This document shows, piece by piece, positions 3 through 20,668 of a stretch of 27,497 nucleotides of DNA; positions within the stretch are counted from its first letter, which is position 1, and each line of letters begins with the position of its first letter. The notes below the pieces were generated by a model, which saw only the letters and a program-made list of their open reading frames with translations, ran no database searches and had not been told where the DNA came from. Both the position numbers and the translations under genes were made by a program. The stretch covers positions 1 through 27,497 of the forward strand of contig JADYYC010000210.1 of the NCBI GenBank assembly GCA_020853835.1. Reading direction: 5' to 3'. The DNA comes from Anaerolineales bacterium (lineage in GTDB: Bacteria > Chloroflexota > Anaerolineae > Anaerolineales > UBA4823).

Positions 3-236
3 ACCCAATCGGATATTCTTACAGTGGATGAAGCTGCGGAATTGCTCAAGATACCACGTTCTTCGGTTTACACCCTGGCACAACAGGGGAGAATTCCTGC
101 CAAAAAAGTGGGCAGGCATTGGAGGTTCCATCGAGGAGTTCTACTGCGCTATGTGGCAGGTCTCGCTGACCAAGATTTACCGAATGCCAGCCAAGAATCC
201 ATCCCGCCGATTGTGGTTAAACCACCCATTGATTAG
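3..236 (+). CDS. Excisionase-family (HTH_17/MerR-like) DNA-binding protein, 5' end outside the window
   Basis: The frame is open from base 3 and reads TQSDILTVDEAAELLKIPRSSVYTLAQQGRIPAKKVGRHWRF, matching the excisionase pattern LTxxEAAxLLxIxxxxVYxLxxxGxIPAxKVGxxWRF. The GTG at 24 lies inside the motif, so the true start is upstream. Confidence 0.88.
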   Translation, partial: TQSDILTVDEAAELLKIPRSSVYTLAQQGRIPAKKVGRHWRFHRGVLLRYVAGLADQDLPNASQESIPPIVVKPPID

Positions 237-672: not shown

Positions 673-1821
673 ATGGATCCTGATAATTTCTCTAGCGCCG
701 CCCCTGGGCGCGTGCTCCGTACATCGAAAGGATATTGGGCATTCGTACCTGACCCACTGCCTCCTACTATCGAATGGTCGACCTCGCTGATCTCCGCCTT
801 AGGTGAGGCGGAACGCAACCTGGGCCGGCTGGCCAGCCTGGCAGATACACTACCTTCGCCGTATATCCTGGTGCGCCCGTTTATCCGACGCGAGGCAGTG
901 CTTTCTTCCCGTATCGAAGGGACGCACGCTTCGTTGGTGGACCTGTACCAATATGAATCGGCGCAATTATCCTTTTTCGAAGACGCCTCAGATGTGCGTG
1001 AGGTGCACAACTACGTGCGCGCTCTGGACTACGGCCTGGAGCGTTCAAAGACCTTGCCGGTGAGCCTGCGCCTGATCAGGGAGATGCATGGAATACTGAT
1101 GGACGGCGTGCGCGGTGAGCACCTCACGCCGGGTGAGTTTCGCCGCAGCCAGAATTGGATTGGCCCACCTGGCAGTACCATCGAGAGCGCCACTATTGTC
1201 CCGCCGCCAGTCGGCGAGATGCACCAGGCTCTGGATAGCCTCGAAAAATTTATCCACACTCCTTCGGATATCCCACAGCTGGCACGCGCCGGTTTGATCC
1301 ATTACCAGTTCGAGGCTATCCATCCTTTCCTGGATGGGAACGGGCGGGTAGGGCGCTTGTTAGTGACCTTGTTGCTGGTCGAGTGGGGATTGATCTCCCA
1401 GCCATTGCTCTACCTGAGCGCTTTTTTTGAGGCTCGTAGGCTGGATTATTACGACCGCTTGCTGATGGTCAGCCAGCGCGGCGAATGGGAGAAGTGGTTG
1501 TTCTTTTTCTTCAAAGGGGTCAGCAGCCAATCTCTGGATGCTATTACCCGCATCGAGCGCCTTGGGCAATTGCGCTCAGCCTACCAGGAGCGCCTTCGGA
1601 TGGAGCGGGCAGAGGCGCGGTTACTGCAAACCCTGGACGTGCTCTTCGAGCGCCCGATACTGAATATTCGGCAGCTTGAGTCGGCGTTGAATGTACCCTA
1701 CCGGACGGCACAGCGATATATCGAGAGGTTGGAGGGGATCGGTATCCTGCGAGAGGTGACCGGGCAGGCGCGCAATCGCTTGTATCGGGCGGATGAGATT
1801 GTTCGAGCCTTAGAAGGTTGA
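673..1821 (+). CDS. fic: Fic family protein (class II, N-terminal inhibitory motif, C-terminal winged-HTH-like region)
   Basis: Canonical HPFLDGNGRVGR active-site motif and N-terminal SSRIEG autoinhibition motif. The C-terminus (RPILNIRQLESALNVPYRTAQRYIERLEGIGILREVTG) looks like a wHTH. Confidence 0.95.
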   Translation: MDPDNFSSAAPGRVLRTSKGYWAFVPDPLPPTIEWSTSLISALGEAERNLGRLASLADTLPSPYILVRPFIRREAVLSSRIEGTHASLVDLYQYESAQLSFFEDASDVREVHNYVRALDYGLERSKTLPVSLRLIREMHGILMDGVRGEHLTPGEFRRSQNWIGPPGSTIESATIVPPPVGEMHQALDSLEKFIHTPSDIPQLARAGLIHYQFEAIHPFLDGNGRVGRLLVTLLLVEWGLISQPLLYLSAFFEARRLDYYDRLLMVSQRGEWEKWLFFFFKGVSSQSLDAITRIERLGQLRSAYQERLRMERAEARLLQTLDVLFERPILNIRQLESALNVPYRTAQRYIERLEGIGILREVTGQARNRLYRADEIVRALEG

Positions 1822-1938
1822 CTGGTCTGACGGTTGATGTTGATACAGAGCATGTTTTTTATTGTATAGTATAAGAGTAACGGGGACAGTTGTTCTTGGA
1901 TTGATTGGGAGATGGGTTGAGGAGTAAGGTGAACGGAA

Positions 1939-2679
1939 ATGACCCGCAGTGACGATCTCGAAGATATCAGGCAAGCCCTATTCGATTGCAGTCAGAATTT
2001 CGAATCAGAAGCGCTACTACCTACGGTTATTCCAGAAGCAGCGCCCCTGGTTGCTTCCGATCCGTACGCCTTCAGCCTTGCAACCTGTCTGGATCGGGGG
2101 ACGAAAGCGGATATCATCTGGACGATCCCTTATGATATTCAGCAGTATTTGGGGCATCTGGATCCTCACCGCATTTACCAGATGTCATTAGATGAACTGG
2201 CGGACTTGTTTGCTCACCTGCCGCGGCGCCCGCGTTACATCAACGATGCGCCTCGCACGTTGAAAGAGCTTACCAGGATTGTGGTTGAGGAATGTGGAGG
2301 CGATGCTTCGAATATCTGGAAAGGTAAGCGCGCTTCGGAAGTCAAGCGCACTTTTATGAGCATTCACGGCGTTGGCTCAGGGATCGCCAGCATGGCGGTG
2401 TTACTTATTGAAGCAGCTTTTACAATCCGCTTCGATGACCTTGACCGAAAAAATATGGATATCAAGCCCGATGTTCACACCATCCGAGTTCTCTACCGGC
2501 TTGGCGTCAGCCAGGCGAAAACCGAGCGGGCAGCCGTCGAAGCGGCGCGGCGCTTGAATCCGGAATATCCTGGGGCAGTGGACGGCCCTTTGTGGAATAT
2601 CGGGCGAACGTGGTGCCACGCCCTTGCCCCAAAATGCTCGCTTTGTTGTATGGAACGGGTTTGCGCTAAAAGGTTTTAG
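1939..2679 (+). CDS. HhH-GPD superfamily (endonuclease III-like) DNA glycosylase with C-terminal [4Fe-4S] motif
   Basis: HhH motif FMSIHGVGSGIA, catalytic-Asp motif IKPDVHTIRV and C-x6-C-x2-C-x5-C (CHALAPKCSLCCMERVC). Purine-rich RBS region upstream (GGAG/AAGGTG). Confidence 0.88.
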   Translation: MTRSDDLEDIRQALFDCSQNFESEALLPTVIPEAAPLVASDPYAFSLATCLDRGTKADIIWTIPYDIQQYLGHLDPHRIYQMSLDELADLFAHLPRRPRYINDAPRTLKELTRIVVEECGGDASNIWKGKRASEVKRTFMSIHGVGSGIASMAVLLIEAAFTIRFDDLDRKNMDIKPDVHTIRVLYRLGVSQAKTERAAVEAARRLNPEYPGAVDGPLWNIGRTWCHALAPKCSLCCMERVCAKRF

Positions 2680-2921
2680 GCTTGCTCTTTGCGAACTGCC
2701 CGAATTTCTTCACAAATGTCCACCGGCAGTTTCTTCGACATATGCTTGGGCGCTCGAGAACGATCCACAAGCGCTTGCCAGTCACTGGCTTCGAAACAAC
2801 GCTTTTGCCATTTGTACACCCAGGCCAAGGATCGCTTCACTTCCTGGGCCACTTCTGTCGGTGTCCTTCCGCTGCGTAGAAGATAGATTGCTGTGCGTCA
2901 GATTGCCAATTCATCGCTCAT
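2676..2921 (-). pseudogene. N-terminal HTH fragment of an IS481-like transposase
   Basis: Minus strand reads MSDELAI*RTAIYLLRSGRTPTEVAQEVKRSLAWVYKWQKRCFEASDWQALVDRSRAPKHMSKKLPVDICEEIRAVRKEQA*, with an in-frame TGA at 2898-2900 and an AGGTG RBS upstream. 'WxYKWxKR...L.DRSRAP' is typical of IS481-type transposases. No DDE core is present. Confidence 0.8.
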
Positions 2922-3038
2922 GGTTTCACCTGCTTTCACTAAGATCACGAGTAGGTGAATTCTAGCTAGAGCAGTGGATTCCACGATGTCTTGAAGGTGA
3001 GTAGGTTAGACCTTTCTACAATGTTCTGAAGGTTCACA
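2676..3038 (-). mobile_element. Truncated IS481-family element (left end only)
   Basis: Minus strand reads ACTAGT (3044-3039) followed by TGTGAACCTTCAGAACATTGTA. A TGT terminus and NCTAGN target are IS481 hallmarks, and from memory the end resembles the B. pertussis IS481 end TGTGAAGATTCAATAGGTTGTA. Confidence 0.65.
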
Positions 3039-3039
3039 A

Positions 3040-3762
3040 CTAGTAGCTCCAAGTTTCGTGCTTCAAAGGGGCACGGTTCAACTGGTCACGATATAGCCGC
3101 CACTGGGGCATAAATTGGTTCATGTAATCCACAAACGCCTCGTTGTGTCTGCGCTCCAACAAATGCACCATTTCATGGACAAGGATAAATTCAAGGCAAG
3201 GAGCAGGCTTCTTCGCCAATTCCAGATTGAGCCAGATGCGGCGCGCCTCGATGTTGCACGTGCCCCACTTGGTTTTCATTTGCTTGATACCCCAATCCGC
3301 CACTTGAACACCGATTTTACTTTCCCATCTGACAATCAGTGGCGGGACAGTCTGCCGTAGGTGCACCCGGTACCAGGCAAGCATCACGCGCTCGCGCTGG
3401 AGCATGGTGCTTTGAGGGCGCACAAACAGGTCGATGATCTTCTTATTACGCACGACTACCTGGCAGTTCCCGTCGCGCTCTGTGACATTTAGCAGGTATC
3501 GTCTGCCTTGAAAATAATGACTTTCCCCACTGACATATTCACGAGGGGTTTCACGATCCTGTTCTTCAAACTTGCCCTGCTGGCGCTTGATCCAGGCCAG
3601 CTTGGATATGACCGCAAGGCGCACAGCCTCATCGCTTACTAAAAGCGGTGCGGCGACACGAACCCTGCCCGTCGGCGGGTAAACTGCCAGATGCAGGTTT
3701 TTGATATCTTTGCGGACAACGTCCACGACCAGGCCATTGACCTCAATCTGGTGCATTTTCAA
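3040..3762 (-). CDS. M48/YgjP-like (DUF45) zinc metallopeptidase-family protein
   Basis: HExxH motif in LVHEMVHLLERRHN, plus MKTKWGTC and N-terminal VRVAAP. The start overlaps the hsdR stop by 4 nt. Confidence 0.92.
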   Translation of the reverse strand: MKMHQIEVNGLVVDVVRKDIKNLHLAVYPPTGRVRVAAPLLVSDEAVRLAVISKLAWIKRQQGKFEEQDRETPREYVSGESHYFQGRRYLLNVTERDGNCQVVVRNKKIIDLFVRPQSTMLQRERVMLAWYRVHLRQTVPPLIVRWESKIGVQVADWGIKQMKTKWGTCNIEARRIWLNLELAKKPAPCLEFILVHEMVHLLERRHNEAFVDYMNQFMPQWRLYRDQLNRAPLKHETWSY

Positions 3763-6700
3763 TACCCGCGCTGGTTCTTCACTAGCTCAAAGATGCGCTC
3801 TGCTTCAGCTTCGTCGGGCACATGCTGAGAAATGACGTAACGGATTTGTCGTTCTTTGATAACGTGCCCGCGCCAATCATCTTTGCGAGTGGCGAGGATT
3901 TCTTGGTCCAGGGCGATGGCCAGCTCTTCGTTTTTGCCAAGGTTATCGTAAAGGGCGCGGCGGGCAGCCGTATTGAGCTTCTTAGGATAAGTGGCAACGT
4001 TAGGGTTTACCACCTGTTTGGTCAACTCGACCAACTTCTTCAGGTACTCTTCGTATTGGCGCGCCTGCTCTTTTCGCTCTTTGATCAGGTTGTCCAGCAG
4101 CTCAGACATTCGTTCGTAATACCTGGGGTTGATCGGCCGCTCGTCGATGATGACCCGGCGCAGGTTGTTTTCGATAGTCTCCGCCGCGGCGTCCTGGCTA
4201 CTGGCGATACCCGGTGGGAGCTGGTCCACGGCCTGTGGGCCGCGCTCGACAATGAGCTGGATCAGGGTCATATCATCAAAGGCCGATATCTTGCGGCTCT
4301 CGTCGGCGTGGATGTAGGTGTCAATCAGATGGCGCATGGCAGGCTCGTACATTTTCAGGTCAATGTAGTCGCCGCTGGCCAGCTTGATTTCGCTGCGCAC
4401 ATTTTCAAAGTATTCTACTTCGTGCTTGATGGTTTCAATCTCTGGCGCCGAATAACCAGCATCCGGCAGCTCGTTAGCGATGTTGGCATAGGCACGGATG
4501 AGCGAGACAGTCAGTTTGTAGAGGGCGATGCGCTTGGGCTCGTTATCCTTGAGGGCGTCTTTGTCGGCGGTGTCTTTTGCACAGAAATAACGGATGTAGG
4601 CAGCGCTATCTTTCGGCGGGTCAACCGGCTCGCATAAAGCCTTGATGGCTTCGCGGGCTTCCTCCAGCCTCTCTTTGGCTTTGTCCAGTCGATTGGTCAA
4701 CAAGCCCAGCACATCCTCTTTATCGTAGGCGTCGAAAGCGCCGGAGGTGTAATCGGTTACGGCGCCTTCCAGGCTCTGGAACAGGTCTTTGTAGTCGATG
4801 ATGTAGCCATACTCCTTGTCGTCGGTGTCGAGGCGGTTGACGCGACAGATAGCCTGGAACAGGCCGTGATCACGCATTTGCTTGTCGATATAGAGATAGG
4901 TCGCGGGCGGGGCGTCGAAGCCGGTGAGCAATTTATCCACGACGATCAGCAGCTTCATCTGCCCTGGTTCGTGGATAAATTTATCCTTGACTTCTTTCTC
5001 AAATACCTCCACGTCTTTCCCGTTGAGCATACGGTCATAGATATCGTATTGGCGCAGCCGTTCGGTGAGGCCTTCGCCGGTTTCCTCGCCTTTGATATCC
5101 GACGAGTTTGGCCGATAGGAGGTAATGATGGCGCATTTATGGAAGCCCTGGGAGGTGAACAGCTCGTAAAACTTGCACGCCTGGTAGATGCTGCCAGAGA
5201 CCAGCAGGGCATTGCCGGTCCCGTTTTGCAAGCGATCTCGGGTTTCAAAGTCAAGCAAAATATCAGCCACAATTTTCTCCAGCCGCGACTGGGCGCTGAG
5301 CACGGTTTGCATGGTGCCCCAGCGCTGCTTGAGCTGGGCACGCGCGACGTCGCTCAGGCCGCGGGTCTTCAGGTCGAACCACTGGTCGATCTTTGCCTGT
5401 GAGGTGATGGCCTGTTCGATATCACGGGCTTCGTAGCGCAAGTCAAGCACCACCTTGTCCCTGACTGCCTCGTCGTATTTATAGGTGTGGATATAGCTGC
5501 CGAAGACTTCGATGCTCTTTTGCTTGTCGGCTTTCAACAATGGCGTGCCCGTAAAGCCGATAAACACGGCGTTGGGCAGGATGCTTTTCATAGCCTTATG
5601 CAGCTCGCCGGATTGCGTGCGGTGACATTCATCGACAAAGACGTAGATATCGCCTTTGGCTTTGAAGTCTTTGGGCAGGCTCCTTTTTAGCTCCTCGATA
5701 TAGCCCTCAACATCGCTCTCTTCGCGACCGGCAAATTTATGGATCAGCGAACACATCAGCCAGGGCAGGGCTGCATTGAGGCAATCGACCAGATCGCGGC
5801 CGCTCTTTGTGCGGTAGATTTGTTCACCCGCGCCGGAGAACTTGCCTTCGATCTGTTCATCGAGTTCGATGCGATCGGTGATGATCAGGACCCTGGCATT
5901 CTTTATGTTTTCGCGGATCCAGCGGGCAAGCCAGACCATGGTCAGGCTCTTGCCGCTGCCCTGGGTGTGCCAGATGATGCCGCCTTCGCGCGTGCGGAGG
6001 CGCTGCTGGGCGGCTTTGACGCCAAAGTACTGGTTGTGACGGCAAACCTTCTTGGTCCCCGCATCGAAGACGATGAAGCCGTGGATAATCTCGAGCAAGC
6101 GTTCTTTCTGGCAGAGCTGGGTCAGGGCGCGGTCGAGCGGGTTCTCGATCGAGCTGTCTTCTTTCCATGCCAGGTAATATTTCTCCGGGGTCTCGATGGT
6201 GCCGTATCGCAGGCCTTCGGTATCATTGCCCGCCATGACGAGCTGGATCGTGGAAAAGAAGCCCTGGATAAATATCTTCTTCTGGTTATCCAGGTTCTGG
6301 CGGATGCCCTCGGATACGGAGACGGTGGAACGCTTGAGCTCCAAGACGCCCAGAGCGATGCCGTTGACATAAAGCACGATGTCGGGGCGCTTGGTATGCT
6401 GCCCCGTGACGGTGACTTCTTCGGCGATCGCAAAGTGGTTGTTGAGCGGGTTATCCCAGTCGATCAGCCAGACCGTCTGGTTGTTCATGCCCGCCTCGGG
6501 CTGAACCTGCACGCCATATCGCAGCAGGTTGTAAACATCTTTGTTGATGTAATACAGGTCCCGGCTCTGGTCGCCGGCGGCTTTGTTGAGCTCATAGAGG
6601 GCTTTGTGAATGAGCTCATCGCTGACTTTCTGCTGTATCAGAAAATCTTGCAGCAAACCTTCTTCGATGTTGCGGTTGTCGGGACGTTCTTCCCAGTTGC

Positions 6701-6785
6701 CGAGGTATTGATATTGGAGCCTCTCGCGGAACAACCCCACGATGCGATCTTGAGTTCTGCGCTCTTTCTGTCCTACGATGCCCAT
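3759..6785 (-). CDS. hsdR: Type I restriction enzyme R subunit
   Basis: Nuclease motif RPDIVLYVNGIALGVLELK. Helicase motifs WHTQGSGKS, VDECHR, GFTGTP, IVVDKLLTGFDAP and QAICRVNR. 1008 aa. Confidence 0.97.
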   Translation of the reverse strand: MGIVGQKERRTQDRIVGLFRERLQYQYLGNWEERPDNRNIEEGLLQDFLIQQKVSDELIHKALYELNKAAGDQSRDLYYINKDVYNLLRYGVQVQPEAGMNNQTVWLIDWDNPLNNHFAIAEEVTVTGQHTKRPDIVLYVNGIALGVLELKRSTVSVSEGIRQNLDNQKKIFIQGFFSTIQLVMAGNDTEGLRYGTIETPEKYYLAWKEDSSIENPLDRALTQLCQKERLLEIIHGFIVFDAGTKKVCRHNQYFGVKAAQQRLRTREGGIIWHTQGSGKSLTMVWLARWIRENIKNARVLIITDRIELDEQIEGKFSGAGEQIYRTKSGRDLVDCLNAALPWLMCSLIHKFAGREESDVEGYIEELKRSLPKDFKAKGDIYVFVDECHRTQSGELHKAMKSILPNAVFIGFTGTPLLKADKQKSIEVFGSYIHTYKYDEAVRDKVVLDLRYEARDIEQAITSQAKIDQWFDLKTRGLSDVARAQLKQRWGTMQTVLSAQSRLEKIVADILLDFETRDRLQNGTGNALLVSGSIYQACKFYELFTSQGFHKCAIITSYRPNSSDIKGEETGEGLTERLRQYDIYDRMLNGKDVEVFEKEVKDKFIHEPGQMKLLIVVDKLLTGFDAPPATYLYIDKQMRDHGLFQAICRVNRLDTDDKEYGYIIDYKDLFQSLEGAVTDYTSGAFDAYDKEDVLGLLTNRLDKAKERLEEAREAIKALCEPVDPPKDSAAYIRYFCAKDTADKDALKDNEPKRIALYKLTVSLIRAYANIANELPDAGYSAPEIETIKHEVEYFENVRSEIKLASGDYIDLKMYEPAMRHLIDTYIHADESRKISAFDDMTLIQLIVERGPQAVDQLPPGIASSQDAAAETIENNLRRVIIDERPINPRYYERMSELLDNLIKERKEQARQYEEYLKKLVELTKQVVNPNVATYPKKLNTAARRALYDNLGKNEELAIALDQEILATRKDDWRGHVIKERQIRYVISQHVPDEAEAERIFELVKNQRGY

Positions 6786-6786
6786 G

Positions 6787-7713
6787 TCACGCCTTCACCA
6801 GTTTGAAGCTGATCTTGTAACGGTAGAACTCTATGCTCGAGGAGACCGCCAGCGCTCTGCGAATTCTCTGATCATCTTCCTGGGCAATGATGATACCCTT
6901 GACGCTTTGCCCTTCTTCCGCCAGCTCTTCCTGCACATAGCCCATATAGCGAAGCGTCTGGCCAACGACCACATCGCTGGCGCGGCCTTTCTTCAGCTCT
7001 ACCACCAGGAGCGTCTTCTTGTCTTTGCTGATAGCAAAAATGTCAATGGGGCCGGTGTCAGTGGGGTATTGTTGGCCAACGCGCTCGCCGTCTTCCTCGT
7101 ATATGTCGAATTCCTTGCCCAGATTGGTTTGCGACCAATTCCGAACTAGAAAATCTTCCAGGTGCTGCTCCATCGCAAAGGCCAAAGCGTCTTCGACCGT
7201 CTCGTCTGTAACGACGAGCTTTGGAGCAGACACGCCAGCGATCAGTTTTTCAATTTCGTCCTGATATGGTGAAATATTGATGACGGCAGCGGCCGCGCCA
7301 GCCGCCCTTTTTAGCGCCTCGCTCATATCGGCGCGCTCGATGGTCTGGCTGAGCCACTGGACAGGGCGGCGGTGCGGCAGCACATCCCCGGGTTGATAAT
7401 AGTAATCCCCATCGACTTCGCCCACATGATAGTGGCCCTTCCCATCGTGGCAAAGTATGATGTCGTCTCCGACAATCCCCTTTGAGACCATCCAGATTGC
7501 CCCGCAGCCCAGGCCAGCCGCGGAGCGCGACTTACCGGGGTTATTCTCAAGAAAGACCGGAATAAATTTTCGGTTGAAGGCGCGCCAGTTTTCCGCCAGC
7601 TCATCCTTTAAGTCCTGATGGATGCCGTAGTCGGCGCCGATGAATTTGCCGGCAATGCACTCCGGTGCATGGACGCTTTTTTTGCCTAGCATAATTCGGT
7701 AGTAGTTTTTCAT
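6787..7713 (-). CDS. NucS/DUF91-like PD-(D/E)xK endonuclease fused to an uncharacterised N-terminal domain
   Basis: The C-terminal EQHLEDFL...GQQYPTDTGPIDIFAISKDKKTLLVVELKKGRASDVVVGQTLRYMG has the ID-x-ELK and GQxxRY motifs. The N-terminal 160 aa (GDDIILC...YHVGEVDGDYYY...PHRRPVQW) resembles the N-terminus of Mrr-like restriction proteins. Confidence 0.85.
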   Translation of the reverse strand: MKNYYRIMLGKKSVHAPECIAGKFIGADYGIHQDLKDELAENWRAFNRKFIPVFLENNPGKSRSAAGLGCGAIWMVSKGIVGDDIILCHDGKGHYHVGEVDGDYYYQPGDVLPHRRPVQWLSQTIERADMSEALKRAAGAAAAVINISPYQDEIEKLIAGVSAPKLVVTDETVEDALAFAMEQHLEDFLVRNWSQTNLGKEFDIYEEDGERVGQQYPTDTGPIDIFAISKDKKTLLVVELKKGRASDVVVGQTLRYMGYVQEELAEEGQSVKGIIIAQEDDQRIRRALAVSSSIEFYRYKISFKLVKA

Positions 7714-7715
7714 TT

Positions 7716-8911
7716 TTAGCCTCGGATCAAGCGTGTTTTCCCCGTAAGCAATTCCTGCATCATGCCTTGTTTGAGCAAACGGGTCTTCTCGCGACGCTGT
7801 TCCAATGCAGCGATTTCTGCATCCATGTTTTTTAGGAATTCAGCAATTGCTATTTGTTCTGTGTCATCTTCAGGGATTTCAATTTCAAAAGCCTTCACAT
7901 CCTTTGAATTGACAGCATCAAATGTAGAACCTTTAGAAAGATTTTTCCATGAAGACTCTCTTGCGATCAAAGCATAATAAAGAAAGTCGTTTGGATAACG
8001 GATCCCACATACCCCACGCCCGAGACAGACATCAAATAAAGCTCGTGAAACTTCCCCTACAGGTGCACGAACGGTCATGAGTATGTCGCCAGTATATCCG
8101 CGTCTAGTAATATGCTTTGTAAAAACTCGCACGGTAGTTCCACGATTAGATATATCTGCATTTCCCTGAATTAGTGGTAACCCATCGCCGCTAATATTGT
8201 AGTATATTGAGCTTGGAGATTGTCCCATTACAATTTTGGCAAGATCTCCGAGTTTCTTTACCGTCCACCCAATGCTAAATCCTTCCAATCGTATTTTTCC
8301 AGTCAGCAATTCCTGCATGGCGCCCTGCTTGATGAGGCGCTTTTTGGCGATGAGGGCGTCGAGGGCAGTGAGCAGGGCGTCCACGTCGCTCAGGGCGGCG
8401 GCGATGGCGCGTTGCTCGGTTAGGGTGGGAGGAACGGGTATCTTCCATTGATCGAAAGAGTTGGTGGTAATAGTGCCAAATGTCGTACCATATGTCAATG
8501 CTCTTATTGAGCCTACAGAGAACAGCATGGCATAATAAAGAAAGTCTCGGTCATATTCGTTGACCGGAAGCAAACAATAACACGTCTGATTGAAAGCCAT
8601 TGCATTTCCAAGCTGAGCTATTCTGCCAACCGTAGCACCACGAGCAATAATAATGGTTGTTCCAGTTGGCATTATCCTGGCTGGACAGGATGCAAGACCA
8701 AGATCAGTGATATAGTCTAATGTATCGTGAATATATCGTCCGTTTGCTCGGGATACATCACCAGCCGCGACCCAGGGAATTAGACCATGCCAATAGTCTG
8801 TCACAGCGGTACTGGGCGTACCTCCTCCGTAAACTTCCGCAATAGACCTGATTGTTTTTACATCCCAGTCATCTGGGATTTCACCCACCTCGGTCGGTTT
8901 GTATCCGGCTT

Positions 8912-8915
<4 letters not shown>
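7716..8915 (-). CDS. hsdS: Type I restriction-modification specificity subunit
   Basis: Two TRDs are flanked by conserved repeats EQRAIAAALSDVD...KQGAMQELLTGK and EQIAIAEFLKNMD...KQGMMQELLTGK, with N-terminal GYKPTEVGEIPDDW. The start overlaps the hsdM stop. Confidence 0.96.
7747..8318. repeat. 14-bp direct repeat in the two hsdS conserved regions
   Basis: AGCAATTCCTGCAT at 7747-7760 and 8305-8318 (both encode MQELL). Confidence 0.85.
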
Positions 8916-11278
<2,363 letters not shown>

Positions 11279-11853: not shown

Positions 11854-13419
11854 ATGGATACGTATATTCGTGGAGGACTGATTGTTGACGGAACTGGGAA
11901 GACCGCGTATCCGGCAGATATCGGTATTCAAGGTGATCGGATTGTCTGGATAAACCGGCATCCGGAAAACGGCGGGCTGGTAGACTGTCCAACTATCGAT
12001 GCAACCGGTCTTATCATCTCGCCAGGGTTTATCGATGCCCATACGCATTCGGATTTCGTCTTCTTCCAGGAACCCCGCCCAGATATGAAGCTTCGTCAGG
12101 GCGTGACCACTGAAATCAGCGGTAATTGTGGCTCATCTGCAGCGCCGATCAGCCCGCAAAATCTTGCCTACTTAGGCCCATACGTCCAAGAGACAATCGA
12201 GGCGGTAGGTAGTTTTCATACCTTTGGTGAATACCGAGACCGCATCCAAGAACATGGTCTTATCAACAACCAGGGATTATTAATCGGACATGCTGCTTTA
12301 CGGACATCGGTGATGGGCATGAAGAATCAACGCGCCAGCCCCGATCAAATCTCCAGCATGAAGAGACTGTTGGAGCAGGCGCTGGATGAAGGCGCGATAG
12401 GTTTTTCGAGCGGTCTTTTTTACCCACCGATGGTTTATTCTGACACTCAAGAATTGATCGAACTGTGCCGGGTAGTAGCGCAGCGCGGAAAGATTTTCGC
12501 CTGCCATATGCGCAACTACAGCACGAACGTACTGCAAGCAGTTGAAGAAATGATCACTGTTGCCAGGGGAAGTGGTGTGAGGCTGCAAATTTCCCACCTG
12601 ATGACAGCCGGCAGAAAAAATTGGGGGAAATCCGAGCAAGTACTACAGATGATCGATCACGAGTGCTTACTGAGCCTCGACATAACTTTTGATCAATATC
12701 CCTATCACGCCGCGTTACCAGGTTTGCTGGCTCTGCTCCCTCCATGGATGCATGAAGGCGGCGTCGACAGAACGGTAGAACGGCTCCAGGACCTCATGTC
12801 TTGCGACCAGGCCAAAAAAGATATCGAACAGGGTCTTCCGGGCTGGGAAAATGTTACGGAACAGGCCGGTTGGGAAAATCTGGTGGTGATCTCACCCAAA
12901 ATCGGCGAATATAGCAATCAGACCATCGCTTCCATTGCAGATGCCACAAGAGCTGATCCGGCGGACGTCGTTTTTTCATTGCTCCTCACCGATCCATACT
13001 GTAACCTGGTAGCCCATTGGCTCAACGAGGAAGATGTCATCGAATTTATGAGACATCCCGCTCAGATGTGGGGCTCCGATAGCGCAGAGTCTGGACCGCT
13101 CGCGCACCCGCGGACCTATGGAACCTACCCAAAAATCTTGCGTGAATATGTTTTCGAAAAGGGAGTTCTAAGCTTAGAGACCGCGATTCAGAAGATGTCT
13201 TCTATGGAAGCTAATCGCTTTGGCATTAATCAGCGCGGAGTCATTAAAGAAGGTTTCTTTGCCGACCTTGTTTTGTTCAACCCGGAGACGATAAAACCCA
13301 CCTCGACTTACGACGCCCCCGATGTTTACCCAGAAGGCGTAATTCACGTTTTCGTCAATGGGAAAATCGCGGTTGAAAATATGCAGACAGCTTCGGGGAA
13401 ATTTGGGAATGTCCTATAG
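11854..13419 (+). CDS. N-acyl-D-amino-acid deacylase (D-aminoacylase)-like amidohydrolase
   Basis: PGFIDAHTHSD, GVTTEISGNCG (Cys ligand), CHMRN, ISHL, DQYPY, WGSD and HPRTYGTYP. ATG 11854 is preferred over GTG 11845 because TAAGGTG lies 6 nt upstream. Confidence 0.9.
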   Translation: MDTYIRGGLIVDGTGKTAYPADIGIQGDRIVWINRHPENGGLVDCPTIDATGLIISPGFIDAHTHSDFVFFQEPRPDMKLRQGVTTEISGNCGSSAAPISPQNLAYLGPYVQETIEAVGSFHTFGEYRDRIQEHGLINNQGLLIGHAALRTSVMGMKNQRASPDQISSMKRLLEQALDEGAIGFSSGLFYPPMVYSDTQELIELCRVVAQRGKIFACHMRNYSTNVLQAVEEMITVARGSGVRLQISHLMTAGRKNWGKSEQVLQMIDHECLLSLDITFDQYPYHAALPGLLALLPPWMHEGGVDRTVERLQDLMSCDQAKKDIEQGLPGWENVTEQAGWENLVVISPKIGEYSNQTIASIADATRADPADVVFSLLLTDPYCNLVAHWLNEEDVIEFMRHPAQMWGSDSAESGPLAHPRTYGTYPKILREYVFEKGVLSLETAIQKMSSMEANRFGINQRGVIKEGFFADLVLFNPETIKPTSTYDAPDVYPEGVIHVFVNGKIAVENMQTASGKFGNVL

Positions 13420-13443
13420 GAGGATCTATTGAAACGAAAATTA

Positions 13444-13490
13444 TTCATACAAACCAACGCCAACATACAATAATTATGCATACAAGGAGG
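13444..13490 (+). promoter_or_regulatory. Possible internal promoter/operator upstream of the binding-protein gene
   Basis: Three CATACAA copies (13446, 13464, 13479), including TGCATACA at 13477-13484 which is identical to the box at 11724. TTCATA-16-TACAAT is present, then RBS AAGGAGG. Confidence 0.45.
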
Positions 13491-13498
13491 TAGTAACT

Positions 13499-15202
13499 AT
13501 GAAAAAAATGAAAACATCCCGAACGTGGATGTGGATCGCTCTGATGATGATCCTGGTCTTGGTAGCTGGCTGTGCCAGCCCTCAGACTCCTACTGCAGCC
13601 CCCCAGGAACCGACGGCTCCCGCTGTAGAAGCACCCAAGACTCCGGAAGAGTCTGAAGTTCCTGAAGCCACAGAAGAGGTTGTGTCCGAACCGCCGGCTG
13701 AAGTTAAACCACCCGAAGGGGTCGAGCAGGTGCTGAGAATCAACTTTCGTATCCCTGCTGGCGGAGTTGACCCTGTGGTTGAACAGGCGGATGCCGGTTT
13801 TCAGATGATGTCTGCCGTATATGACCGGCTGGTGGTAGTAAATAGCAAGATGGAACTCGTTCCTCAACTCGCTGATTCTTGGGATGTGTCTCCGGACGCG
13901 AAGACCTGGACCTTCCATCTGCACCCTGGCGTCAAATTCCACGACGGCACTACCTTGGATGCCGAGGCGGTCAAGCATTCGATCAGTCGGGTGTTAGACC
14001 CAGCGAATGCCTCCCTCTATGCATCTACTCTTACGATGGTTGATTCTATCGAGGTCATCGATCCTTTGACCGTCCGGTTCAATCTGTCCTACCCGTTTGC
14101 GGCTTTTGTCCGCTCCCTGGCTCTGCCGGGTGCAATGATCACCTGTCCGCAAGAAGTAGAGAAATGGGGCAAGGACTTTGTACAACACGGCTGCGGATCG
14201 GGGCCCTTCTATATCGACAAATTTGTTCCAGGAGAAGGCATGGAGGTGGTGCGCTTCGACGATTACTGGCGCGGACCGGCCAAGTTAGATAGAATCGTTT
14301 ACACGTTCATCTCGGATGAACAGGCGCGCGTCTCAGCGTTGATTGCTGGCGATACCGATTTCGAGACGAACATTCCCGGCCCTATGCTACCGCTGGTCGA
14401 GAGCAATCCCGACCTGACCATCGAACGTGGTCCTGCAATGATGGTCGAGTACATCGGTTTCAACACCACCGATCCAATCTTTTCCGACAAACTCGTCCGC
14501 CAGGCCGTAGCATACTCGATTGACATGGAGACGCTAATCAAGAATGTGATGGGCGGCGTGGGTGTGCATGCTAGCCAGCCCATTTCGCCTCTGGCCTTCG
14601 GTTATGACCCTTCTCTTAAGCCGATTCCTTATGATCCGGCGAAGGCCACTGAACTGCTTAAGCAGGCTGGCTGGAGTGATACAAACGGCGATAAGGTGAT
14701 GGACAAGAATGGAGAATCCCTCACCACCAAGTTCTGCATCATGAGCATCCCCCAAATGGTCCAGTTTGCCCAGGGCGTACAAGCCTACATGAGAGATGTA
14801 GGAATTGACGCCCAAATCGAAAGCCTGGATTGGGGCACTTATCTGGATGCCGCTCAAAGCGGGAATTGTCCAATATTTGAAATCGGCGAAGGCGCTAACA
14901 CCGGCGACGCAGATTACATCTTATGGAGTCAGTTCCATTCCAGCATGATTCCAGCCAGTAACTGGACCCGGTATAACAGCCGCACCTACGACGAGCTGAT
15001 GGTCCAACAGCGCCAAGAGGTCGATCCGGATAAACGCCTTGAACTTCTCAACCAGTCGGTCCGGCTGCTAATGGAAGACATGCCATGGGTGCCAACCTGG
15101 GTGCGCGAAAATCTGCAAGCGCATAAAAGCTATGTGAAGGGTTATGTCCAGGGACCGAGCACAACCTATATGGACCTATACCCTGTATATATCGGAAAAT
15201 AG
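13499..15202 (+). CDS. ABC transporter family-5 (Dpp/Opp-like) substrate-binding lipoprotein
   Basis: Signal peptide with lipobox VAGC (Cys25) followed by a P/E/A/T-rich linker. Family-5 signature PQLADSWDVSPDAKTWTFHLHPGVKFHDGT, plus GSGPF and VRQAVAYSID. Confidence 0.95.
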   Translation: MKKMKTSRTWMWIALMMILVLVAGCASPQTPTAAPQEPTAPAVEAPKTPEESEVPEATEEVVSEPPAEVKPPEGVEQVLRINFRIPAGGVDPVVEQADAGFQMMSAVYDRLVVVNSKMELVPQLADSWDVSPDAKTWTFHLHPGVKFHDGTTLDAEAVKHSISRVLDPANASLYASTLTMVDSIEVIDPLTVRFNLSYPFAAFVRSLALPGAMITCPQEVEKWGKDFVQHGCGSGPFYIDKFVPGEGMEVVRFDDYWRGPAKLDRIVYTFISDEQARVSALIAGDTDFETNIPGPMLPLVESNPDLTIERGPAMMVEYIGFNTTDPIFSDKLVRQAVAYSIDMETLIKNVMGGVGVHASQPISPLAFGYDPSLKPIPYDPAKATELLKQAGWSDTNGDKVMDKNGESLTTKFCIMSIPQMVQFAQGVQAYMRDVGIDAQIESLDWGTYLDAAQSGNCPIFEIGEGANTGDADYILWSQFHSSMIPASNWTRYNSRTYDELMVQQRQEVDPDKRLELLNQSVRLLMEDMPWVPTWVRENLQAHKSYVKGYVQGPSTTYMDLYPVYIGK

Positions 15203-15278
15203 ACATCCGCAAACCGCTGCATGAAAGATCGATGTCAGTCGGCTAGGAAATAGCAACATCGTCGAAAGCGATTGTCAA

Positions 15279-15327
15279 CGGGTGCATTGCATTGCATAAT
15301 CGTATTCAACGTAATGCAATGCACCCG
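15279..15327 (+). repeat. Long intergenic hairpin between binding-protein and permease genes
   Basis: CGGGTGCATTGCATTGC (15279-15295), 15-nt loop, GTAATGCAATGCACCCG (15311-15327): 16/17 Watson-Crick pairs plus one G-U. No U-tract follows. Confidence 0.85.
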
Positions 15328-15393
15328 AAACCGCTTGCCAGACAGAAGCACGTTTCGTCAATTTTGGCAGATGCGCTGAGGAGATAACTTTTT

Positions 15394-16311
15394 ATGTACT
15401 ATGCCATTCGGAAACTCCTGATGCTCATTCCGTTGATGCTGGGAGTATCTTTTCTGGTTTTTCTGATGATGCGAGTGTTGCCAGGCGACCCAGCAAAAAC
15501 CCGCGCCGGTCTACATGCCACTCCAGAGATGATCGAAAAGATCCGCCAGGAGTTACAACTGGATAAACCTCTACTTGTGCAATATTATCTCTTCTTGCGT
15601 GACGCAGTACACCTGGATTTTGGACGCTCCATTCGCTCCAATCAACCGGTGTTAACCGAGTTTCTAATCAGATACCCAAACACGATCATGCTGACCCTGA
15701 CGGCAACAATGCTGTTTCTACTCATCGGGATTCCGCTAGGGGTGATCGCCGCCGTGCATCACGGCTCAATTTGGGACGGTTTGACCATTCTCGTCGGCCT
15801 TATTGGTATCTCGATGCCCAGTTTTTGGCTTGGGTTGTTGCTTATCTGGGAATTCGCCGTGAAACTTAAGCTGCTTCCATCCTTTGGACTTTCCAGTCCC
15901 GCGCATATGATCCTGCCTGCGATCACCCTGGCAGCCTATGGGATCGCCTATACGGCACGTTACACTCGCTCGAGCATGCTGGAAGAGCTAGGCCAGGACT
16001 ATATCACCGCTACGCGCGCCAAAGGCTTGTCAGAGAGAACGGTTTTATACCGTCATGCGCTGCGAAATTCGCTGCTTCCAATTCTCTCACAAGCCGCGCT
16101 CGGTTTTGGTTATATGCTTGGTGGATCAGTTGTGATTGAGGTAGTATTTACAATCAATGGTATCGGTAAGTTAATCGTCGATGCCATTCTGTATCGGGAT
16201 TTTCCCATTGTGCAAGCTGGCGTTTTGCTGATCTCGATAAATTTCGTTTTGGTAAACTTATTTGCCGATCTGGCGTATGGCTTGATCGACCCTCGCATCC
16301 GCTTAACCTGA
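15394..16311 (+). CDS. ABC peptide-type permease (DppB/OppB-like)
   Basis: LPGDPA, LDKPLLVQY, DFGRSI, SMPSFWLG, EAA loop YITATRAKGLSERTVLYRHALRNSL and RDFPIVQ. Confidence 0.95.
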   Translation: MYYAIRKLLMLIPLMLGVSFLVFLMMRVLPGDPAKTRAGLHATPEMIEKIRQELQLDKPLLVQYYLFLRDAVHLDFGRSIRSNQPVLTEFLIRYPNTIMLTLTATMLFLLIGIPLGVIAAVHHGSIWDGLTILVGLIGISMPSFWLGLLLIWEFAVKLKLLPSFGLSSPAHMILPAITLAAYGIAYTARYTRSSMLEELGQDYITATRAKGLSERTVLYRHALRNSLLPILSQAALGFGYMLGGSVVIEVVFTINGIGKLIVDAILYRDFPIVQAGVLLISINFVLVNLFADLAYGLIDPRIRLT

Positions 16312-16329
16312 TCAGGTGCGGGTTAAATC

Positions 16330-17235
16330 ATGGAGGAAAATATCCTGCTTACCGAACCAAGACTAGTGCCCCCTGCCTCTGTCCCAAAGAGGCGAGCCTC
16401 GCTTTACCAACACGCATTTCGCCGGTTTATTAAAAATAAAATAGCGTTGTTGGGCCTGGGACTTGTCGCGGTTCAGATCTTGATTGCCATTTTTGCAAGT
16501 GTTATCGCGCCGTATGACCCTCTGGCTGTTGACATGAAGACCGTGCTGGCGCCGCCGCTCACCCCGGGGCACCTGCTGGGCACCGACGACCTGGGTAGAG
16601 ATATGGTCAGTCGCTTGGCCTATGGAGCGCGAATTTCTTTCGGGGTGGGGTTGGTAGTGGTGCTTATTGCCATATCTATCGGCGTCCCACTCGGCGCATT
16701 GGCTGGTTACTTTCAACGCCTCGATCCCTGGATCAGCTTCGTCATCGAAGTGTTGTTAGCATTTCCCGGCATCATTCTGGCGCTTGCAATTGTCGCTGCG
16801 CTTGGCCCGGGGTTATTAAGCGTTATGATCGCCGTTGGGATTACCTCGGTGCCGATGTATGTGCGTGTGGTACGCGGGCAGGTCCTTTCGCTCAAGCAAA
16901 GAGACTACGTTGTATCGGCGCGAGCACTCGGGATGAGCGAGGGCGGCATCCTGTTCCGGCAGATATTGCCCAACTGCCTGGGCCCGATCATTGTTCAGGC
17001 GACGATCAATATCGGCACATCGATCCTTCAAGCCGCATCCTTAAGCTTCATTGGTGTGGGCGTACAACCGCCCCAACCAGAGTGGGGCGCCATGCTCAGC
17101 CAGGCACGCAGCTATATCATTCTAGCGCCCCACATCGTAGCGCTGCCGGGAATAGCGATCATGTCGGTTGTCCTTGGCTTCAACTTGCTTGGAGATGGGC
17201 TGCGAGACGCACTGGACCCACGTTTTATACGCTGA
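16330..17235 (+). CDS. ABC peptide-type permease (DppC/OppC-like)
   Basis: HLLGTDDLGRDMVSRLAYGARISF, EAA loop YVVSARALGMS, PPQPEWGAML and GDGLRDALDP. Confidence 0.95.
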   Translation: MEENILLTEPRLVPPASVPKRRASLYQHAFRRFIKNKIALLGLGLVAVQILIAIFASVIAPYDPLAVDMKTVLAPPLTPGHLLGTDDLGRDMVSRLAYGARISFGVGLVVVLIAISIGVPLGALAGYFQRLDPWISFVIEVLLAFPGIILALAIVAALGPGLLSVMIAVGITSVPMYVRVVRGQVLSLKQRDYVVSARALGMSEGGILFRQILPNCLGPIIVQATINIGTSILQAASLSFIGVGVQPPQPEWGAMLSQARSYIILAPHIVALPGIAIMSVVLGFNLLGDGLRDALDPRFIR

Positions 17236-17278
17236 GCCTGAAGGCTGAACACAAAAAACAGAGAAGGAGGACCAAAAA

Positions 17279-18496
17279 ATGTCAGACGAATATGGAAAGA
17301 CTAAAGTGGCTTATGATTGGGAACACCGCAGGCAATATCTTGTGCTCCCATTTCCAATGAAAGAATATCAAAGGCGCGTGGATGCATTAAGGCGTTCGAT
17401 GAACGACGCCGGCCTCGAATATCTGATCATTTACGGTAACCCGGCTTGCACTGGCCCGATCTACTATATCGCTAACTTTGATAGCTTTTTTGGGAACACC
17501 ATCGTCTTCTTGCCCGCTTCGGGCGATCCGGTGTTGATTACCGATGGCATAATGCACAGCGAGCCAATGCACAGCGGGATCTGGACGACATGGATTCGCG
17601 ATATTCGACCAGCCAACCATCCAGCAACAGTGCGCCATACGCGCAACCTATCTGATTTCATCGTCGATGAACTGAAGAGGCTGGGCTTATCAGATGCTCC
17701 AGGGGGTCTAATCAGCGCGGGTTTCTTCCCATACACCTTCATGCAGCGGTTGAATGACTTGCTGCCCGACATCCAACTATCCCCTGCAGAGGCTGTTTTC
17801 GAACGAGTTCGCTCGATTAAAAGCGACCTGGAGGTTGCCCTCCTGCGCAGGACGGCAAAGATCGCCTCACTAGGATTAGATCATGTATTTTCAATCCCGC
17901 AAGCCGGGATGACCGAAAAACAACTGGCAGCCGAAGCCGTGCGCGTCTTTTTGGAAGAGGGTGCCGAATTTCCGTTGATGGTAGCAGTGACTGCGGGCGT
18001 GCGTGCTGGGCTGAAACACGCCAGCCCCACAGATCAGAAGATTAAAAACGGTGATATGATTTTCGTGGATGTCGGGACGCCGGTGAGCGGTTATTTTAGC
18101 GACGTTGCCCGCAGCGGCGTGGCAGGCAAAGCCAACCAACAACAAATCGCGATGTTTAAAACCGCTCTGGAAATGCACGATCGTGTGATCGCTGCGATTA
18201 AGCCAGGAGCGCGCATCTGCGACTTACAACGCATTGCAGAGGAGGTGGCGAGGACAAACGGTTTTGCCAATTATTACTATCCCACTGGCTTTGGACACGG
18301 AATCGGCACCTCCGTAGCCGAGACACCGATCCTATTTCCTGATAACGAGGCCGCGCTAGAGAAGAATATGGTGTTTGCTTTAGAACCGATGATTGTGATC
18401 GAGGGAGTGGGCACCGCCGTGTTCGAAGAGATGATTCTGGTTACATCTGAAAGCTGTGAAGTCTTATCCGATGCAACACTTTCCACCTGGAAGTAG
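17279..18496 (+). CDS. M24B (Xaa-Pro peptidase/creatinase-fold) hydrolase
   Basis: Creatinase-like N-domain (PFPMKEYQRRVDALRRSM) and RSIKSDLE. Metal ligands are in FVDVG, FSDVAR, GHGIG, ALEP and FEE. Confidence 0.9.
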   Translation: MSDEYGKTKVAYDWEHRRQYLVLPFPMKEYQRRVDALRRSMNDAGLEYLIIYGNPACTGPIYYIANFDSFFGNTIVFLPASGDPVLITDGIMHSEPMHSGIWTTWIRDIRPANHPATVRHTRNLSDFIVDELKRLGLSDAPGGLISAGFFPYTFMQRLNDLLPDIQLSPAEAVFERVRSIKSDLEVALLRRTAKIASLGLDHVFSIPQAGMTEKQLAAEAVRVFLEEGAEFPLMVAVTAGVRAGLKHASPTDQKIKNGDMIFVDVGTPVSGYFSDVARSGVAGKANQQQIAMFKTALEMHDRVIAAIKPGARICDLQRIAEEVARTNGFANYYYPTGFGHGIGTSVAETPILFPDNEAALEKNMVFALEPMIVIEGVGTAVFEEMILVTSESCEVLSDATLSTWK

Positions 18497-18512
18497 ATGA
18501 TAAGGAGACGTT

Positions 18513-19481
18513 ATGGGTGAAAACGAAGGTATCTATCCCGGGCTTGGATTAGTGCATTACGTTTCATTCCCAAAGAATATCCCGGGCGATGGTCCGATTA
18601 TCGAGAACTTGGAAAGCATCCTGGCGGATGACGATTTCCAGACAATTGAAATTTCATGGATTAAAAACGAAGATGTAAAAAAGAAAGCCAGCGCTTTACT
18701 GAAGACTTCAGGCAAACGGATAGTATTCTCAGGTGGCCCTCCCTTCGCCTATCAACAGATTAATCTGTCTTCGCTGGATGATGGCGAACGAAAATATTCA
18801 ATGGAGTACGCTAGGCAATTGTTCGATGATGCCCGTCTCTTCAACGCCTGCATTTTTCTTATTACGGGTGGGCGCGATACGTTGCCTTCAGAAAGAGAGC
18901 GCGCCAAGGACAAGCTGGTTCAGTCTATCGTTGAACTCTCAAAATATGCCCGAGAACATTCCGATCAGTCGCCGATCTACCTCTCACTCGAGCCAGTAGA
19001 TAGGGCGGTTCACCGTAAAGGGTTGATCGGCCCGATTGCAGAAGCTGTCGAGATAGCGCAAAGAGTGGAGCAGGCAGGTGAAACGCTTTATCTAACCCTC
19101 GATCAGTCACACCTTGCTCAGCTCGGCATAGCGCCTGGTGAAGCGCTTCGCCTGGCTTATAATTATCTTTTCCATGTCCACCTAGCAAACTGTATTATCT
19201 GCGACCCACAACATCCTTTGTATGGCGATGAGCATCCTTACTTTGGAATAAAAGACGGGGAGCATGGATTACAGGAACTGGTAGTTTTTCTGAAAATATT
19301 GGAGAAGCTGGGTTATTTCAGTCGCCAGCCGCCTTATGGAGGCTGGCCAATCGTCAGCGTCGAAGTCAAGCCTTTGGATAATGAAGATCCAGTTGAGGCG
19401 CTGAAAACTACCAAAGCTGTTCTGGCAAAATCATTCGCCGAAACTTGTCTTTCCTCACTATCTGAAAGGATCAGCCGATGA
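18513..19481 (+). CDS. Sugar-phosphate isomerase/epimerase-like TIM barrel (AP_endonuc_2 family)
   Basis: The E/D/H/E metal-site pattern is present in LSLEPVDR, LTLDQSH, FHVHLAN and VSVEVK. The stop overlaps the next ATG (ATGA). Confidence 0.8.
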   Translation: MGENEGIYPGLGLVHYVSFPKNIPGDGPIIENLESILADDDFQTIEISWIKNEDVKKKASALLKTSGKRIVFSGGPPFAYQQINLSSLDDGERKYSMEYARQLFDDARLFNACIFLITGGRDTLPSERERAKDKLVQSIVELSKYAREHSDQSPIYLSLEPVDRAVHRKGLIGPIAEAVEIAQRVEQAGETLYLTLDQSHLAQLGIAPGEALRLAYNYLFHVHLANCIICDPQHPLYGDEHPYFGIKDGEHGLQELVVFLKILEKLGYFSRQPPYGGWPIVSVEVKPLDNEDPVEALKTTKAVLAKSFAETCLSSLSERISR

Positions 19482-20659: not shown

Positions 20660-20668
20660 GAGGGATGG

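Follow-up and report, generated by a model that had tools for sequence, protein, structure and literature searches.

That bacteria use base excision against viruses is a recent insight, the cases in point being Brig1, Brig3-BapA and the Dag enzymes. Brig1 reportedly established base excision as a form of immunity. The gene treated here encodes an endonuclease III (EndoIII)-like, helix-hairpin-helix (HhH)-GPD/[4Fe-4S] DNA glycosylase and lies in a 27,497-nucleotide stretch of DNA that will be called the window; this is one whole contig (C210; JADYYC010000210.1) of a 3.2-Mb, 84% complete metagenome-assembled genome (GCA_020853835.1) whose nearest relatives are Anaerolineales. Members of the family to which the protein belongs normally form a cassette with a DUF6884/YaaA-like protein, as two genes or as a fusion, and in the window that partner has been lost. 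The explanation preferred here, at a probability of about one half, is base-excision, type-IV-like defence by a monofunctional EndoIII-like glycosylase left without its cassette partner. The initial annotation of this DNA had proposed an accessory glycosylase that excises phage-modified bases; the partner cassette and its loss escaped it.

In the Brig3-BapA operon, BapA strips glucose from a modified base so that the Brig3 glycosylase can act (10.64898/2026.02.25.707755). Brig1 and Brig3-BapA have in common with what is proposed here the excision of modified phage bases to abasic sites, and Brig3-BapA is the closest analogue of a glycosylase-DUF6884 cassette. The Brig enzymes differ in their uracil-DNA glycosylase-like fold and in that their substrates are known, and BapA is a glucosyl hydrolase. 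Many glycosylases of the HhH superfamily (Dag1, Dag2 and 17 more) are described as protecting against 7-deazaguanine phages and as mobile and distinct from housekeeping enzymes (Getz et al., 10.1101/2025.10.29.685425). The role proposed for the window family is the same: that of mobile accessory HhH-superfamily glycosylases near defence or mobile elements. In contrast, the Dag enzymes are described as residing in Vibrio integron cassettes, as not linkable to known glycosylases by sequence and as clustering near Tag and AGOG/Ogg; Dag1 is bifunctional, with a Lys-Asp pair, and the text of the preprint makes no mention of an iron-sulfur cluster or of an operon partner (10.1101/2025.10.29.685425). 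Because of that preprint, defence against modified-base phage by HhH-GPD glycosylases is no longer a new idea. The iron-sulfur lineage, the DUF6884/YaaA-like partner, the Gly/Lys split and the solo copies set out below are not described in the literature found, a statement on which the Dag supplement, where this family may already be included, may bear.

Two further systems are relevant. END nucleases join a PLD, NucS or McrB effector to an inactivated EndoIII/Ogg domain that senses hypermodified DNA (PMC12191111). They resemble the window family in turning an EndoIII-type domain on hypermodified phage DNA, as is proposed for that family, and in their modular nuclease fusions, with which the methyl-directed restriction nuclease domain of one relative (P0069, below) may be compared. 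END sensors lack catalytic residues, whereas the window family keeps its Asp and Cys residues and the window protein is a single domain, which sets it outside the END nucleases. DpdC, to which the usual partner of the family is related, converts preQ0 to ADG within DNA (PMC10164549).

The gene, its 5' leader and the diagnostic residues of its product are as follows.

1939..2679, + strand: EndoIII-like HhH-GPD/[4Fe-4S] glycosylase gene; ATG start, 246 amino acids (aa), intact frame.
Within the protein: HhH hairpin G144-A150, Gly148 (lyase-Lys position), Asp178, Cys226/233/236/242 (from alignments, conservation and model).
1822..1938, + strand: intergenic leader 5' of the glycosylase gene, with a GAGGAG ribosome-binding-site-like sequence and DNA-level conservation with the two closest relatives, loci L003 and L004.

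Two alignments place the protein on EndoIII: a phmmer match to D. radiodurans EndoIII-1 (E 0.006) and a profile of 34 homologues against the Geobacillus enzyme (1p59/1orn; E 4e-12, residues 30-242 on 21-209). In both, G144-V-G-S-G-I-A150 aligns to the EndoIII hairpin G-V-G-R-K-T-A, with Gly148 on the lyase lysine, and D178, in I-K-P-D-V-H, sits on the catalytic Asp. The initial annotation had read the hairpin as GVGSGIA with the lysine replaced by Gly, and the Asp and four cluster cysteines as retained, and was correct on each count. Among 271 homologous domains D178 is conserved in 263 of 265 and the four cysteines in 257-261 of 258-261; the hairpin residues G144 and G146 are kept in 261/268 and 251/268, respectively. 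Conservation on this scale exceeds what chance would give. C226, C233, C236 and C242 have the C-x6-C-x2-C-x5-C spacing of the EndoIII/MutY/MIG clade, and cluster binding is predicted. The lyase position is another matter: of 151 family representatives, 76 have Gly there and 67 have Lys, so that a missing lysine is characteristic of a subfamily rather than of the family at large. The N-terminal D-P-Y-A-F...L-D-R-G stretch was noted at the outset as differing from Nth and MutY; profile alignment shows it to be the homologue of the EndoIII N-P-F-E-L-L...S-A-Q helix, with a different sequence. Relative to EndoIII there are also ~11-12 extra residues between hairpin and Asp.

An AlphaFold2 model (predicted local distance difference test, pLDDT, 94.8) has the two-domain HhH-GPD fold, its best structural matches being EndoIII (Nth; PDB 1p59, 1orn, 2abk, 4unf), MutY and MIG (1kg2, 1rrq, 1kea), at template-modelling (TM) scores of 0.61-0.67; identity to EndoIII over the structural alignments is 16-20%. 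MutY and MIG, like the window protein, are iron-sulfur HhH-GPD enzymes that lack the lyase lysine, and the 34-sequence profile matches their Asp-to-cluster segment, the match to MIG being limited to the cluster loop (E 0.028). Although fold and motifs of the superfamily are present, the sequence is too divergent for the Pfam HhH-GPD model PF00730 (17.4 bits, E 0.0057, below the gathering cut-off of 26.2). The best-scoring curated family is NCBIfam TIGR03252 (HhH-GPD-type base excision DNA repair protein, a hypothetical equivalog), which reaches 48.7 bits against a cut-off of 136.5 and matches only residues 30-157, from the N-terminal helices through the hairpin; 34/34 aligned family members match it weakly (best E 5.5e-28). 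Scores for endonuclease III (nth, TIGR01083; 19 bits, cut-off 211.7) and mutY (15.9 bits, cut-off 286.5) fall far below membership. The protein ends 4 residues past the last Cys, with no C-terminal NUDIX-like domain and thus none of the 8-oxoG-recognition domain of MutY, and Pfam finds no effector domain in its 246 residues. A separate Nth-like gene of the same genome lies on contig C436. These comparisons support the claim, already made in the initial annotation, that the glycosylase is not a housekeeping Nth or MutY.

Its distribution is not that of a housekeeping gene either. A word-indexed search returned 719 homologues (the best 120 at 61-96% identity, mostly ~247 aa) and an exhaustive search 1051 representatives, of which 126 have an E value of 1e-30 or lower. 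With the threshold at 1e-20 there is a family match in 2/200 other genomes of the window's order and none among 17 genomes of its own family; ~5 intact full-length copies and 1 split copy occur in 400 genomes of the phylum (phylum tallies include three unpublished genomes). EndoIII, by contrast, is universal. A further ~80 phylum genomes have a shorter, TIGR03252-like relative that matches only residues ~21-170 and lacks the Asp-to-cluster part. This shorter relative is lineage-wide in some Chloroflexota families (16/16, 16/17 and 11/12 genomes) and has no type-I-restriction-like neighbours in the 20 loci examined (e.g. L077-L096); it behaves as vertically inherited, unlike the full-length iron-sulfur family. 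A maximum-likelihood tree of 49 copies places one row from Aminicenantes and one from Porphyromonadaceae, with starred support, among Chloroflexota rows, which supports the view that the full-length family, besides being rare, has spread horizontally.

Sixty related loci show no common synteny beyond immediate neighbours: besides the glycosylase itself no gene cluster occurs in more than 9/60, and the clusters at the top of the shared list are those of partner genes. In 42 of the 60, the glycosylase gene has a DUF6884 gene (134-146 aa) or a YaaA-like gene (205 aa) no more than 180 bp away, up- or downstream, or is fused to one. The other 18 comprise four loci cut by a contig end, five with a partial glycosylase gene only and nine intact orphans, which are scattered over the tree in a way that needs at least 8 changes. 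On the glycosylase tree the two types of partner are intermingled, from which it follows that partners have been swapped and lost repeatedly. Fusions tell a similar story of association: among 51 long homologues, DUF6884 is present in 21, DUF7662 in 9 and DUF7669 in 2. The fused DUF6884 domains match the PADLOC candidate PDC-M57A, with E values as low as 8e-35, and have a weak match to DpdC; in P0149 (658 aa) a strong DpdC-like domain (4e-35) is fused behind the glycosylase, and in P0069 (406 aa, 68% identical) the glycosylase is fused to a DUF6998/methyl-directed type II restriction nuclease domain (6e-38). For the N- or C-terminal extensions of P0122-P0126, P0134, P0137, P0142 and P0143, Pfam at E up to 0.5 gave no match.

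CxxxK and SA-x-YG motifs, which have been singled out as features of DUF6884, a family related to the DNA-binding protein YaaA (PMC11701544), are kept in both partner types. The partner is described here as a DpdC-related CxxxK protein, for which DNA binding and base flipping are predicted. A complex prediction for the L003 glycosylase with its YaaA-like neighbour scored 0.00 and, being made without controls, reads neither way. A literature search found neither PDC-M57 nor DpdC together with YaaA, and none of the DUF6884 literature that it found concerns defence. In one clade (L031, L032, L033, L035, L045) two further genes stand ahead of the cassette on the same strand: a REase_II-like gene of 366 aa (PADLOC E ~1e-16; 3930-5030 in L032) and one of 162 aa (5052-5540 in L032), for which Pfam has nothing at E up to 0.5. 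With the cassette they may make up a unit of four genes.

The fate of the partner in the window is best seen against the two genes that now flank the glycosylase gene.

673..1821, + strand: SoFic-type Fic protein, 382 aa, intact, directly upstream of the glycosylase gene (Pfam Fic_N, Fic, SoFic-like_C; PADLOC SoFic E 1.7e-119).
2679..2897, - strand: transposase N-terminal winged helix-turn-helix (HTH) remnant, 73 codons, with an in-frame stop before it (Pfam HTH_29 2.3e-07, HTH_23 5.1e-06, weak HTH_Tnp_IS630).

The closest relatives, L003 and L004, encode glycosylases of 88-90% protein identity that form a clade with that of the window at 100/99 support. In both, a YaaA-like gene follows 26 bp past the glycosylase gene; hsdR-hsdM-hsdS come next on the same strand in L003, and in L004 the contig ends inside hsdR. 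DNA homology between the window and these loci extends from the 3' end of the SoFic gene through the leader and the full glycosylase gene, and ends at the glycosylase stop codon (~2679). There, where the relatives have the partner gene, the transposase remnant of the window begins. Upstream, only the last ~45 codons of the SoFic gene are left in L003 (8120-8260) and L004 (1512-1643), at 81-82% identity. The SoFic stub in the relatives, together with the missing partner in the window, implies that the ancestral order was probably SoFic, glycosylase, YaaA-like gene and type I restriction-modification (RM) genes, different pieces having been lost in each lineage. The window keeps a whole SoFic gene without the partner and L003 and L004 the reverse, so that erosion has reached the same island from opposite sides. 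No DUF6884, YaaA or L003-partner relative was found in the window or in the rest of the 84% complete assembly, so that the entries that describe the family's usual partner (PF21818 and PF03883 for DUF6884/YaaA, DpdC, PDC-M57A) have no counterpart here, and the window gene has no DUF6884/YaaA-like gene adjacent or fused to it. DNA contigs of two other studies (X3, 2134-2786; X8, 2605-3248) bridge the junction without differences; it is therefore not an assembly artefact.

The solo gene is not visibly the worse for this loss. The ratio of nonsynonymous to synonymous change (dN/dS) is 0.098 against L003 and 0.084 against L004, compared with 0.106 between L003 and L004, values that are pairwise and do not isolate the window's own branch. 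In an alignment of 17 sequences including the window's (A2), the window protein departs from the consensus at one position, L27, which is Phe in 14/16 of the others. The gene thus looks maintained, intact and under purifying selection, and its product is on these grounds probably still active, perhaps with a narrower range.

The cassette keeps company with restriction-type genes of at least 8 unrelated kinds, many of them on the same strand and separated from it by gaps of tens of bases.

Type I RM: L003, L004, L037 and the window.
Type IIG: L007.
Type ISP: L038, L052.
Type III: L054.
REase_II-like gene: L032, L035, L045.
HNH nuclease: L022.
Methyl-directed nuclease: L010.
BrxF-BrxC: L018 (10001-15615).

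In L018 a BREX-type operon is headed by the glycosylase and YaaA-like genes, which BrxF and BrxC follow directly on the same strand. An iterated profile search seeded only with the HsdR, HsdM and HsdS of the window found relatives within 8 kb in 8/60 family loci and in 0/34 control loci (14 random regions and 20 TIGR03252-like loci; one-sided p 0.023); plain tblastn with the same proteins, which reached 4/60 loci, was too insensitive, and the iterated profiles were used instead.

The preferred explanation, base-excision defence by a solo glycosylase, takes the gene product to be catalytically competent and can be set out in steps, of which those on activity, substrate, partner and defence are conjectural. 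The cassette of this rare, horizontally moving family lodges beside restriction systems and would complement the neighbouring RM. The HhH hairpin and cluster loop would grip DNA; a non-canonical, phage-modified base would be flipped into the pocket; and water activated by Asp178 would cleave the glycosidic bond. With Gly148 in place of the lyase lysine, the product would be abasic sites, and these would block replication or be cut by host apurinic/apyrimidinic endonucleases. In complete cassettes the partner would probably recognise modified bases or remodel them into substrates, as BapA does for Brig3. In the window, a rearrangement next to the transposase remnant removed the partner and left the glycosylase on its own.

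A number of observations weigh against this explanation. The nearest homologues with known function are repair enzymes. The glycosylase has no match among the families of PADLOC-DB 2.0 at E up to 1. PADLOC matches counted loosely (any match at E up to 1e-8) number 25/150 among genes near the cassette (150 of the 192 genes within 1.8 kb), 21/150 among far genes (at least 6 kb away) and 20/150 among genes taken at random from 14 regions of the window's genome, which is no enrichment (p 0.5-0.6); 8/20 matches in the random control come from one type III-D CRISPR locus and most of the others are generic ATPases, kinases and helicases. Matches of the RM class alone are raised, which speaks for the explanation, at 11/150 near, 4/150 far and 1/150 at random (Fisher 0.005 for near against random); the p for near against far is 0.11, the class was picked after the data had been seen and related loci are not independent. 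The nine intact partner-less relatives are partly beside non-defence genes (a glycosyl hydrolase, an Mg-chelatase-like ATPase, tetratricopeptide-repeat or leucine-rich-repeat proteins), and the cassette of the window itself is incomplete. No relative was found in viral contigs, nor, by tblastn, in phage or plasmid records, so that mobility is read from the tree only. Finally, the DUF6884 member YfjM is among the reported binders of abasic and RNA-base lesions (PMC11701544), which would also suit a repair function.

Set beside the proposals of the initial annotation, these results are uneven. It had placed the gene next to RM and Fic genes, and the SoFic gene and type I RM system are there. The enrichment near defence genes that it named as a check appears in the RM class and in the HsdR/M/S profiles and is absent from the loose PADLOC count. 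An accessory role is favoured by the rarity of the family, its horizontal spread, its adjacency to RM systems and its fusions; the phage effect and the substrate retain the standing of proposals.

A broader claim would make the glycosylase-DUF6884/YaaA-like cassette an undescribed two-enzyme immune system, in which the partner recognises or converts hypermodified phage bases and the glycosylase excises them, solo copies being autonomous and of narrower range. This is put forward tentatively, as one possibility. Derivatives of 7-deazaguanine would be the obvious candidate substrates of such a system, on the analogy of the Dag precedent and because of the kinship of the partner with DpdC.

Several of the observations listed against a defence function are what one would expect of an accessory DNA-repair glycosylase, which would remove alkylated, oxidised or deaminated host bases, leave the lesion or the abasic product to the YaaA-like partner and, together with it, move as a fitness cassette into the recombination hot spots that RM genes also occupy. 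The nearest structures and profiles are without exception those of repair enzymes, TIGR03252 is named as a base-excision repair protein, the loose PADLOC count is level and several partner-less relatives sit in ordinary contexts. There is also a precedent in Mig.Mth, an iron-sulfur glycosylase that is encoded beside an RM system and repairs deaminated 5-methylcytosine. The methyltransferases observed next to the cassette are, however, of the N6-adenine type (N6_Mtase), so that the logic of Mig and Vsr, which is that of 5-methylcytosine deamination, does not apply. Also against a repair function are presence in 2/200 genomes of the order, when TIGR03252-like relatives are lineage-wide in some families, tree nesting across phyla, fusions to methyl-directed restriction nuclease and DpdC-like domains and a genome that has an Nth-like gene of its own. 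Repair is considered unlikely.

It may be asked next whether the window gene does anything at all. If the cassette needs both proteins, the solo gene would have been functionless since the partner was deleted, damage having not yet accumulated. Absence of the partner from the locus and from the 84% complete assembly, the transposase remnant at the breakpoint, the presence of a partner in 42/60 relatives and the existence elsewhere of broken or partial glycosylase copies (L037, L055, L057, L059-L061) are all in keeping with decay. Against it stand the intact reading frame, a dN/dS of 0.084-0.098 (again pairwise, the window branch not being isolated) that is like the value between the partnered L003 and L004, the single departure from the A2 consensus, and the recurrence over the tree of nine other intact orphans. 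Two other studies, moreover, have DNA contigs in which the junction is the same. A decaying leftover is, on balance, quite unlikely.

Improbable, too, is a DNA-modification or self-marking system, in which the glycosylase-like protein and its DpdC-like partner would install or edit a host base in the manner of DpdA/B/C and the restriction genes would read the mark. Relatedness of the partner to DpdC, an editor of preQ0 in DNA (PMC10164549), points in that direction, as does the placement of the cassette directly upstream, on the same strand, of hsdR-M-S in L003, L004 and L037 and of BrxF-BrxC in L018. So does the presence of DUF2419 queuine-salvage structures among the weaker fold matches of the model (E 1.5e-4 to 2.8e-4). 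The neighbouring RM systems, however, have their own methyltransferases, and the cassette is found in the company of many unrelated systems as well as by itself. HhH-GPD enzymes are hydrolases or lyases, and we know of no base-exchanging member, which weighs against a system of this kind. Least probable is a catalytically silent sensor of modified bases that recruits or activates a neighbouring restriction enzyme or SoFic: inactivated EndoIII/Ogg domains do sense hypermodified DNA in END nucleases (PMC12191111) and one fusion with a nuclease domain occurs among the relatives, but END domains lack catalytic residues, the catalytic Asp is kept here in 263/265 along with the cluster cysteines, and the 246-aa protein has no effector domain.

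The remaining genes of the window that border on the glycosylase region are the following.

3..236, + strand: excisionase/AlpA-like HTH_17 gene, truncated at the contig start (Pfam HTH_17 2e-16).
3040..3762, - strand: YgjP-like (DUF45) metallopeptidase gene (Pfam YgjP-like 7e-57).
3759..6785, - strand: HsdR, type I restriction subunit, 1008 aa (Pfam HSDR_N, SWI2_SNF2, T1R_D3-like, ResIII).
6787..7713, - strand: NucS_C/PD-(D/E)XK-like gene, 308 aa, between hsdR and hsdS (Pfam NucS_C 5.4e-08, YhcG_C 4.7e-05).
7716..8915, - strand: HsdS, type I specificity subunit (Pfam Methylase_S 3.9e-45).
8912..11278, - strand: HsdM, type I N6-adenine methyltransferase, 788 aa (Pfam N6_Mtase 5e-101, HsdM_N).

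The YgjP-like gene shares 4 bases with the end of hsdR, as though it belonged to the RM operon. In the 308-aa protein encoded between hsdR and hsdS, the NucS_C/PD-(D/E)XK-like region is the C-terminal half, and the N-terminal half has no family match in Pfam. In L005, 1.5 kb downstream from its glycosylase gene, a stretch (5851-6012) is 61% identical to the HTH_17 gene of the window; the latter may mark a mobile island, and the likeness hints that both loci may be islands of one kind. There is no tRNA gene and no clear G+C step at any island border in the window. Beyond the RM genes, from 11.8 kb onward (11854-26434), runs a long same-strand metabolic operon with genes for an amidohydrolase, a peptide ATP-binding cassette transporter, an M24 peptidase, an aminotransferase, a creatininase-like protein and an acyl-CoA synthetase (ADP-forming)-like protein. 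A promoter and terminator scan of the window gave nothing above shuffled sequences, and no sigma-70-like promoter on the + strand of the leader. Two contigs from RNA libraries, X15 (2269-2503) and X18 (2626-2776), match without differences at a depth of 2-3 and, DNA being possible in such libraries, are not counted as expression. Elsewhere in the same genome, contig C394 (L068, 3-11375) carries the type III-D CRISPR-Cas locus that turned up in the random control, with Csx1, Cas10d, Cas5, two Cas7, a CARF protein, Csx15 and Cas6.

If the family is defensive, it would add an iron-sulfur, EndoIII-derived lineage to antiviral base excision, give a function to DUF6884/YaaA-like proteins, for which none has been established so far, and provide a second example of a glycosylase that is aided by a base-handling partner. 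If it is a repair cassette instead, repair enzymes would travel through RM hot spots, and caution would be called for in reading neighbourhood as function. In either event, the Gly and Lys subfamilies constitute, inside a single family, a natural test of monofunctional against bifunctional chemistry, and the window amounts to a natural experiment, its partner-less copy, still under selection, being relevant to the question whether the glycosylase acts by itself.

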